A model generated the notes under the pieces. That model ran no database searches, was not told where the DNA came from, and saw only the letters and a program-made list of their open reading frames with translations. DNA of 11,220 nucleotides from Escherichia coli (GTDB lineage Bacteria; Pseudomonadota; Gammaproteobacteria; Enterobacterales; Enterobacteriaceae), in the NCBI RefSeq assembly GCF_003334765.1, contig NZ_QOWT01000057.1, one strand, 5' to 3'. Position 1 is the stretch's first letter. The number at the start of each line of letters is the position of its first letter. Below are positions 10,985 through 11,220 of this stretch, one piece after another. The translations under genes were made by a program, and so were the position numbers.

Positions 10985-11019
10985 TTTCCTCTCCAGTTCA
11001 GATTTCTGCGATATTAATC

Positions 11020-11033
11020 TTTCGTTTTGTTTC
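11020..11033 (+). promoter_or_regulatory. AgaR (DeoR-family) operator-like motif, TTTCGTTTTGTTTC
   Basis: Matches the TTTCRTTTYRTTTY core of the AgaR binding-site consensus as recalled from the literature. Lies about 35-50 bp upstream of the kbaZ-like start. Confidence 0.45.
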
Positions 11034-11060
11034 AGTTCATACTGCGTCATGGTGAGATAA

Positions 11061-11074
11061 AAATAAAACGAAAG
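11061..11074 (-). promoter_or_regulatory. AgaR operator-like motif (reverse complement CTTTCGTTTTATTT)
   Basis: Second copy of the TTTCGTTT(Y)(R)TTT pattern. Confidence 0.4.
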
Positions 11075-11193
11075 ATAATGGTTTTCTGATCCGATTCACA
11101 AAAGAAACATAATGAAAGTCAGTGAAACGAGAGTAGCTTGCGCCAATGGGCAAGGTGGGCTTGCATTTGCTTAATAGAAAGGCGTTAATAGGC

Positions 11194-11213
11194 AAAACGA
11201 AATGAAACGAAAG
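11194..11213 (-). promoter_or_regulatory. AgaR operator-like tandem motif (AAAACGAAATGAAACGAAAG; reverse complement CTTTCGTTTCATTTCGTTTT)
   Basis: Third copy, with tandem GAAACGAAA units. Position is consistent with the agaR-kbaZ divergent control region; agaR itself would lie beyond the window end. Confidence 0.4.
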
Positions 11214-11220
11214 TTTTACG

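Follow-up and report, generated by a model that had tools for sequence, protein, structure and literature searches.

The repressor AgaR is described as binding the agaR, kbaZ and agaS promoters (in passages of PMC3668189 and PMC4694137, both citing Ray & Larson 2004), and the former gives an induction by N-acetylgalactosamine (GalNAc) of about 5-fold for Pz and about 20-fold for Ps, again citing Ray & Larson 2004. An internal deletion is on record as well, E. coli K-12 having a 2.3-kb agaW'-'agaA deletion according to the legend of Fig. 1 in PMC3668189. The DNA analysed here is a stretch of 11,220 nucleotides from Escherichia coli (the window), which ends in an agaR-kbaZ control region (positions 10985-11220) that a deletion appears to have brought in front of genes for a phosphotransferase system (PTS) transporter, a lyase and a 637-aa glycosidase (below, the distal genes). 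Taken as a whole, our reading is that the agaS promoter (PagaS) was exchanged for the kbaZ promoter (PkbaZ) within one and the same regulon and that the AgaR input to the distal genes would have been preserved by this exchange; we hold it with moderate confidence.

The identification of the AgaR region rests on its identity to the K-12 region and on conservation across species, and not on a matrix score. Positions 10915-11220 are 97.7% identical to K-12 over 306 nt without a gap, covering the first 70 nt of kbaZ and the agaR-kbaZ intergenic region; all AgaR-type boxes are unchanged, and the few substitutions fall between them. A pattern scan with TTTCRTTTYRTTTY gave four exact matches within the window, where 0.00 are expected by chance and none of 200 dinucleotide-preserving shuffles of the window had a match. 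With a fifth, degenerate box this bears out the sequence-only reading made earlier of this DNA, which had counted at least three copies upstream of the fusion remnant. The exact boxes lie at 11020-11033 on the + strand (TTTCGTTTTGTTTC), inside the predicted 5' untranslated region of kbaZ', at 11060-11073 on the - strand (TTTCGTTTTATTTT), overlapping the predicted PkbaZ core, and, as an overlapping pair on the - strand, at 11194-11207 and 11199-11212 (TTTCATTTCGTTTT and TTTCGTTTCATTTC, the same as in K-12). The pair (11194-11212) adjoins the start of agaR, and the degenerate box (TTTCATTATGTTTC, 11104-11117, - strand, one mismatch) has its K-12 counterpart at 12190-12203. The positions first given for the boxes were right to within 1 nt, the second having been put at 11061-11074 and the third locus, given as a single site, being the overlapping pair. 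Boxes at 11017-11032 and 11061-11076 form a 16-nt inverted repeat. Across the K-12 aga region (24 kb) exact copies of the motif are confined to two places, the DNA between agaR and kbaZ and that in front of agaS. Allowing one mismatch brings in another agaR-kbaZ box and, at 23862, a stray site that lies beyond the cluster. In the complete aga loci of Enterobacter, Raoultella and Klebsiella the exact motif likewise stands at these two places and nowhere else. A consensus string for AgaR (WRMMTTTCRTTTYRTTTYNYTTKK) was no part of this identification; two transcription factor library papers give no AgaR site sequence.

A CRP-like site (TGTGAATCGGATCAGA, 11085-11100, - strand, the sole match in the window and with one mismatch) is kept relative to K-12, one of the substitutions sitting in its spacer; it is weak on sequence alone, since 47 of the 200 shuffles also matched. 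Class II CRP geometry would place the PkbaZ transcription start near 11050. The sigma-70 scan calls no PkbaZ, as one would expect where a promoter depends on CRP and its -35 element is weak. It does find GTGAGA-16-GATAAT (11052-11079, + strand), a consensus match only, which is a candidate for PagaR, directed toward agaR. Together, these features point to 10985-11220 as the divergent agaR-kbaZ control region, with predicted AgaR operator boxes, a CRP-like site, PkbaZ running leftward (- strand) and PagaR running rightward, and such a control region is in itself textbook knowledge. We also note that a 15-codon upstream open reading frame (ORF), which in K-12 closes with TAA before kbaZ, has AAA at 11003-11005 of the window (CAA in other E. 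coli copies), whereby an ATG at 11050 is in frame with kbaZ' and a 134-aa ORF results; this longer ORF is probably irrelevant if the transcript begins near 11050.

The region had been called orphaned, which is right in so far as it has lost its own kbaZ, but not with regard to its regulator. In genomes matching the window at 99.9-100%, an intact and divergent agaR (274 aa; 14835-15659 of the island sequence L001, just right of the window end) begins 13 nt beyond the end of the window. The product scores 457 bits as the NCBIfam AgaR equivalog, is identical to K-12 AgaR at 265 of 269 residues and has a 5-residue C-terminal extension (LASSL). Strain E400634, one of these genomes, also has a complete native agaR-kbaZ-agaVWEF-agaA-agaS-kbaY-agaBCDI cluster about 210 kb away, so that these strains hold two agaR genes and two PkbaZ regions, and agaR is present both on the island and in the native cluster. 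The island copy differs from the native copy of its own host at 43 of 1125 nt and from K-12 at 20. These counts rule out a recent homogenisation with the aga locus of the host, and the island copy reads as old E. coli-type sequence and not as a recent duplicate.

Leftward of the control region the 339-nt fusion ORF (10646-10984, - strand, GTG start, 112 aa) joins kbaZ' to 'kbaY in frame and is co-directional with the PTS, lyase and hydrolase genes, as had been proposed. Its first part, 10915-10984, is the first 70 nt of an E. coli-type kbaZ, and 10646-10903 correspond to the 3' end (258 nt, with 85 codons and the stop) of a kbaY of Enterobacter type, whose identity to kbaY of E. coli is only 76.5%. 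By this alignment an internal in-frame deletion runs from kbaZ codon 24 to about kbaY codon 200. Lost with it are kbaZ, agaVWEF and agaA, the agaS promoter together with the AgaR boxes there, agaS itself and the greater part of kbaY.

The junction is occupied by a palindrome (10897-10958, inside the fusion ORF) with a perfect 27-bp stem and an 8-nt loop. Its folding energy is -49.3 kcal/mol (z = -9.9) for the window; another carrier, which has G-C in place of the window's single G·U pair, reaches -51.6 kcal/mol. The 5' region of native K-12 kbaZ is a quasi-palindrome with interior mismatches (-29.6 kcal/mol), whose 3' arm has CCGCTGGTGCTG at its end, a stretch of 12 nt that kbaY shares and that encodes PLVL in both proteins. 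From this 12-nt microhomology GTGCTG remains at the junction, which is placed at the base of the quasi-palindrome and where the sequence runs into kbaY at GTGCTG/CATGG. The island segment between the inner and outer stems is the exact reverse complement of the 5' arm, TTTGTTTTGCCCGCTTTGTGCTGC being the reverse complement of GCAGCACAAAGCGGGCAAAACAAA, and the H2 copy is fully perfect. The junction thus bears the signature of two events, a template switch on the quasi-palindrome and a deletion at the microhomology, which may have come in either order. An Rfam scan of 10300-11220 returned only sub-threshold matches to miRNA precursors, caused by the long hairpin.

The ancestry of the distal genes was followed by scanning species-representative genomes with the 637-aa protein, which gave 62 loci, and mapping the K-12 Aga proteins onto these. 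In 42 of the 46 loci of enterobacterial type (L003-L048) the 637-aa gene comes after kbaY in the same orientation and as a rule directly abuts it, the exceptions being three Kluyvera loci without aga genes nearby and one locus (L026) in which agaBCD intervenes. More than 40 species of Enterobacterales thus have it behind agaS-kbaY in an intact aga cluster. It closes a complete aga cluster in Enterobacter, Lelliottia, Kosakonia, Raoultella, Klebsiella and Yokenella, and is likewise the last gene of complete clusters in Pluralibacter, Yersinia, Buttiauxella, Ewingella and Serratia, the order being garD, a divergent agaR and then kbaZ-agaV-W-E-(F)-agaA-agaS-kbaY. Eight loci (several Enterobacter, Yokenella and others) have malX-like and malY-like genes between kbaY and the 637-aa gene; in the clusters that lack these two, the 637-aa gene abuts kbaY and must therefore be co-transcribed with agaS-kbaY. 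Each of the 14 loci scanned has one AgaR box or, in 10 cases, two upstream of agaS, and none has a box between kbaY and the distal genes. Since the distal genes thus sit downstream of the boxes of the agaS promoter in intact clusters, their control by AgaR is probably ancestral. From the 637-aa gene to the end of 'kbaY the island is colinear with E. cloacae over 5.1 kb, with 86.4% identity, and all three distal genes are under purifying selection relative to Enterobacter (dN/dS 0.04-0.10); the same holds for the glycosidase gene when compared with the Nissle-type copy described below.

The window is part of a pheV-associated island with an integrase gene, inside which the window starts, remnants of the insertion sequences IS3 and IS66, and a MarR gene; there is no tRNA in the window. 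Identity to K-12 is 98.2% in the kbaZ'-agaR part of the island, first 90% and further on 80% in a garD' fragment beside agaR (L001 15713-16828), and 76.5% in 'kbaY, while the identity of kbaZ'-agaR to Enterobacter is only about 77%. The genes prlF-yhaV, which lie between agaR and garD in native E. coli, are absent from the island, and the gene order at agaR-garD' is Enterobacter-like although the sequence is partly E. coli-like. The two ends of the E. coli-like block, at the fusion junction and at the agaR stop, fall exactly where homology to native E. coli would end, at the agaR stop because yhaV-prlF follow there in the native locus. A gene conversion by the native aga locus in some ancestral E. 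coli would fit this block.

Of 5,426 complete genomes, 312 have the form seen in the window, with at least 99% identity to one another, and about 189 others have a sister form, including E. coli Nissle 1917 (L066, 4587027-4593431). The Nissle-type form has an agaR that is frameshifted and carries a 243-bp deletion, followed in order by kbaZ' (276 nt), 'agaS, kbaY', 'malX (80 nt) and then an intact malY and 637-aa gene. The 637-aa genes of the two forms differ with dS = 0.30, and the Nissle-type form is an independent decay of the same second aga cluster. An undeleted cluster of Enterobacter type was not seen in E. coli: no record exceeded 90% identity, the top matches listed were native agaS-kbaY at 79.7%, and 169 records at 80-90% were not inspected. 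A literature search on the island module (pheV with agaR; 'putative enterotoxin' with malY) found nothing relevant. As side observations, all 16 complete genomes that cover the whole window match it in two pieces and have about 1,958 extra bases (IS100 istA-istB) at about 4299-4300, after the MarR gene, an insertion that the source of the window lacks. A module 98-100% identical to that of the E. coli island is also found on contigs of metagenome-assembled genomes (MAGs) binned to Gram-positive gut taxa (L003, Collinsella sp.; L064, Lachnospiraceae), most likely as binning contamination.

We propose that a horizontally acquired, mosaic aga cluster of Enterobacter type on a pheV-type island, with the ancestral order garD, agaR divergent from kbaZ-agaVWEF-agaA, agaS-kbaY, malX-like, malY-like and 637-aa glycosidase genes, suffered the internal kbaZ'-'kbaY deletion. 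As the deletion would have removed the agaS promoter, PkbaZ would now be the sole promoter with AgaR boxes upstream of the distal genes. Both AgaR proteins would repress PkbaZ, and GalNAc or galactosamine (GalN) would lift this repression. Transcripts starting near 11050 would then be translated through the in-frame fusion ORF, which would limit Rho-dependent termination, and at least some of them would reach malX-malY-glycosidase. The outcome would be an amino-sugar-responsive input that the distal genes already had, and no new connection. The sequence-only reading is in this respect partly supported, AgaR input to the distal genes being plausible.

Read-through from PkbaZ is plausible because no intrinsic terminator is predicted, the scan having found no terminator-like site on the - strand from 11220 to 10300. 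The stem-loop at 10561-10592 to which the sequence-only reading drew attention is real and G+C-rich (-17.9 kcal/mol) and, as that reading stated, has no U-tract; the junction hairpin is also G+C-rich and without a U-tract, the tails of the two being CAUUAUCCU and UGCAUGGGG. The 10561-10592 stem-loop is not the sole intervening structure, as had been thought, the perfect hairpin at the junction being far stronger. The fusion ORF retains the ribosome binding site and start of kbaZ and meets no stop codon until that of kbaY, which precedes malX by 112 nt. Up to the spacer the transcript is G-rich and not C-rich, so that Rho entry should not be favoured.

The spacer between kbaY and malX (10534-10645, - strand) contains the 10561-10592 stem-loop and has no AgaR box. 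TATAAG is invariant in it, the stem-loop is conserved apart from its variable loop, and an upstream CCUCG can pair with CGAGG, the Shine-Dalgarno sequence of malX, a pairing weakened in the E. coli copies (UCUCA); the conservation of the spacer, seen with loci L004, L005, L014, L016, L019, L026 and L044, goes far beyond the neutral expectation. The sigma-70 scan found no site in the spacer, either in the window or in E. cloacae. The malX-like gene itself, for a PTS EIICB protein (8962-10532, - strand), is frameshifted at codons 4-5 in the window. A run of A in codons 4-6 (10519-10525, - strand) is A7 here, A8 in three E. coli with an intact malX and A9 in a MAG contig, and the Enterobacter orthologues have no homopolymer at this position. 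The ATG at 10532 therefore opens a 60-codon out-of-frame ORF in the window, the next in-frame start being at 10467. The A7 run may be either an inactive allele, a homopolymer error of sequencing or assembly, or a case of slippage or phase variation. The next gene (7775-8953, - strand) encodes a MalY/PatB-family C-S lyase dependent on pyridoxal phosphate (TIGR04350, 363 bits, above the cut-off).

Several observations weigh against an exchange of PagaS for PkbaZ that still serves the distal genes. The perfect 27-bp hairpin lies about 90 nt into the predicted transcript; a perfect duplex of this length is long enough for RNase III and could stall or slow ribosomes, and given this hairpin the genes further down may be only poorly coupled to PkbaZ. 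Conservation of the kbaY-malX spacer between genera is about 87% in spite of a dS of about 0.7 in the flanking genes, and malX may accordingly have a promoter, leader or control of its own there. The frameshift in malX could make a transcript from upstream polar on malY and the glycosidase gene. Island AgaR carries G59R in the closest genome, a change seen in E400634 and F1022, at a glycine that is invariant in the other AgaR proteins compared, whereas the carrier 09A19CPO004B keeps G59. The broken agaR and deleted malX of the Nissle-type form show a module that is eroding, and as the 312 carriers are at least 99% identical, the retention of the promoter says little about selection. The rival to this exchange is an inert remnant, in which the region is kept for the promoter of agaR itself or because the island is young, the hairpin blocks or processes the PkbaZ transcripts, and the distal genes use signals in the spacer independently of AgaR. 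This explanation, which we regard as possible but doubtful, draws on the strength of the junction hairpin and on the conserved spacer with its -10-like TATAAG, stem-loop and pairing over the ribosome binding site and without an AgaR box. The frameshifted malX, the dead agaR and deleted malX of the Nissle-type copy, and a recent spread of near-identical carriers, which could explain retention, speak in the same direction. It is opposed by the sigma-70 scan, in which no site of the spacer passes here or in E. cloacae, by the position of the glycosidase gene against kbaY, and hence its co-transcription with agaS-kbaY, in clusters without malX and malY, and by the absence of a predicted intrinsic terminator. 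Moreover, native kbaZ has the hairpin of -29.6 kcal/mol at the same place and yet is expressed, as stated in part of PMC3668189.

A version along the lines of the sequence-only reading would have kbaZ and kbaY fused by a deletion in the native aga locus, and an unrelated accessory PTS-lyase-hydrolase operon newly brought under AgaR. The fusion and the co-orientation on which this was built are real, but we consider it highly improbable. The same genome has a complete native aga cluster at another place, while the present locus lies in the pheV island between IS remnants and is a mosaic second copy, its agaR-kbaZ' part 98% identical to E. coli and its distal half 86% identical to Enterobacter, against the 76.5% of 'kbaY to E. 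coli kbaY. Nor would there be a rewiring, the supposed accessory genes being ancestral members of aga clusters that already stand downstream of the AgaR boxes of the agaS promoter elsewhere. Finally, that the T-rich motifs are not operators but a product of chance in AT-rich DNA between genes is scarcely credible. The region is indeed AT-rich and a published matrix was not applied, but the four matches compare with none in the shuffles, and the same boxes stand at the same positions in K-12 and across genera, only at aga promoters.

The last gene of the cluster is the 637-aa ORF (5872-7785, - strand; the RefSeq start is at M9, giving 629 aa), which we assign as a GH36-like three-domain glycosidase. 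The protein has no Pfam match even at E <= 10, no NCBIfam match and no sequence match in the PDB. An AlphaFold2 model built from 26 homologues (pLDDT 89, pTM 0.89) has a beta-sandwich, a TIM barrel and a second beta-sandwich; its best Foldseek match is a GH36 alpha-galactosaminidase of Flavonifractor plautii (E = 2e-26), followed by GH36 alpha-galactosidases, GH97 and GH31. Invariant in the family are D275-D276-G277-W278, K370-x-D372 and R430-x-G-x-D434, and these DDGW, K-x-D and R-x-G-x-D motifs may correspond to those of GH27/36, which they resemble in a comparison made without superposition of active sites. The N-terminus (MKKVLTLSLLALCVSHGAAA/AN) resembles a Sec signal peptide as judged by eye, and dN/dS is 0.06-0.10. 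The fold, the invariant motifs, the low dN/dS, the signal-peptide-like N-terminus and the fixed place at the end of aga clusters all suggest that the protein is probably an exported alpha-Gal(N/NAc)-type glycosidase serving the GalNAc pathway, and the earlier proposal that the hydrolase is tied to GalNAc/Gal is thus backed by synteny and fold. RefSeq names for it vary between 'enterotoxin', 'alpha-galactosidase' and 'hypothetical', of which 'enterotoxin' is unsupported and misleading. About 9% of complete E. coli genomes have the gene on islands; distant homologues, with an identity of 31-48%, are spread over Gemmatimonadota, Verrucomicrobiota and Planctomycetota, with one more in a Bacteroidota isolate (Desertivirga).

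It is tempting to join these strands into one reading in three parts. The 637-aa protein would found a family without Pfam entry of signal-peptide-bearing, clan-GH-D-like alpha-(N-acetyl)galactosaminidases, it would be a conserved terminal member of the AgaR regulon of many Enterobacterales that frees GalNAc and GalN from host glycans for the Aga PTS, and the template-switch deletion would have kept it under AgaR control through the exchange of PagaS for PkbaZ. That all three parts are true together we can put forward only tentatively, and we judge it rather unlikely. If PkbaZ does drive the distal genes, the mucin sugar GalNAc would switch on an additional glycan-foraging enzyme, which bears on gut colonisation. 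What is new is the context, namely that about 500 of 5,426 complete E. coli genomes have the remnant of a second GalNAc cluster of Enterobacter type on an island, more decayed in Nissle 1917. What survives of it encodes a PTS transporter, a C-S lyase and a glycosidase that is unclassified and whose N-terminus resembles a signal peptide. The analysis corrects the 'enterotoxin' annotation and supplies a clear case from nature in which a template switch on a quasi-palindrome has given rise to a gene fusion in frame; the interest lies mainly in this fusion and in the uncharacterised glycosidase family.

In several respects the locus can be compared with systems already described. With the agaR-kbaZ (agaZ) region of E. 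coli K-12 and its AgaR/DeoR-family repressor it shares all boxes, the CRP-like site, the kbaZ ribosome binding site and GTG start, and the divergent agaR, whereas the island holds a second copy in which only 70 nt of kbaZ are left, fused to a foreign kbaY tail. The Enterobacter-type clusters of E. cloacae M-7 and E. hormaechei DSM 14563 have the same gene order, strand and conserved kbaY-malX spacer, and differ in still having what the island lacks, from kbaZ past codon 24 through kbaY to about codon 200, PagaS included. The agaW'-'agaA deletion of K-12 is, like that of the island, internal, fuses gene fragments and leaves AgaR-controlled promoters in place; the deletion on the island is about 6 kb long and in frame, loses the agaS promoter and has a template-switch palindrome at its junction. 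Quasi-palindrome template-switch mutations have reportedly been described by Ripley and by Lovett and co-workers. The likeness to these is that an imperfect inverted repeat (-29.6 kcal/mol) has become perfect, the new bases being the reverse complement of the other arm, and the island case adds a microhomology deletion that joins two genes. The 637-aa protein, lastly, shares its three-domain architecture with the GH36 alpha-galactosaminidase of Flavonifractor plautii (PDB 9ayu, 9awt and 8x1b) and with GH36 alpha-galactosidases, from which it is set apart by an identity of only 11-13%, TM scores of 0.44-0.61 and its signal-peptide-like N-terminus.

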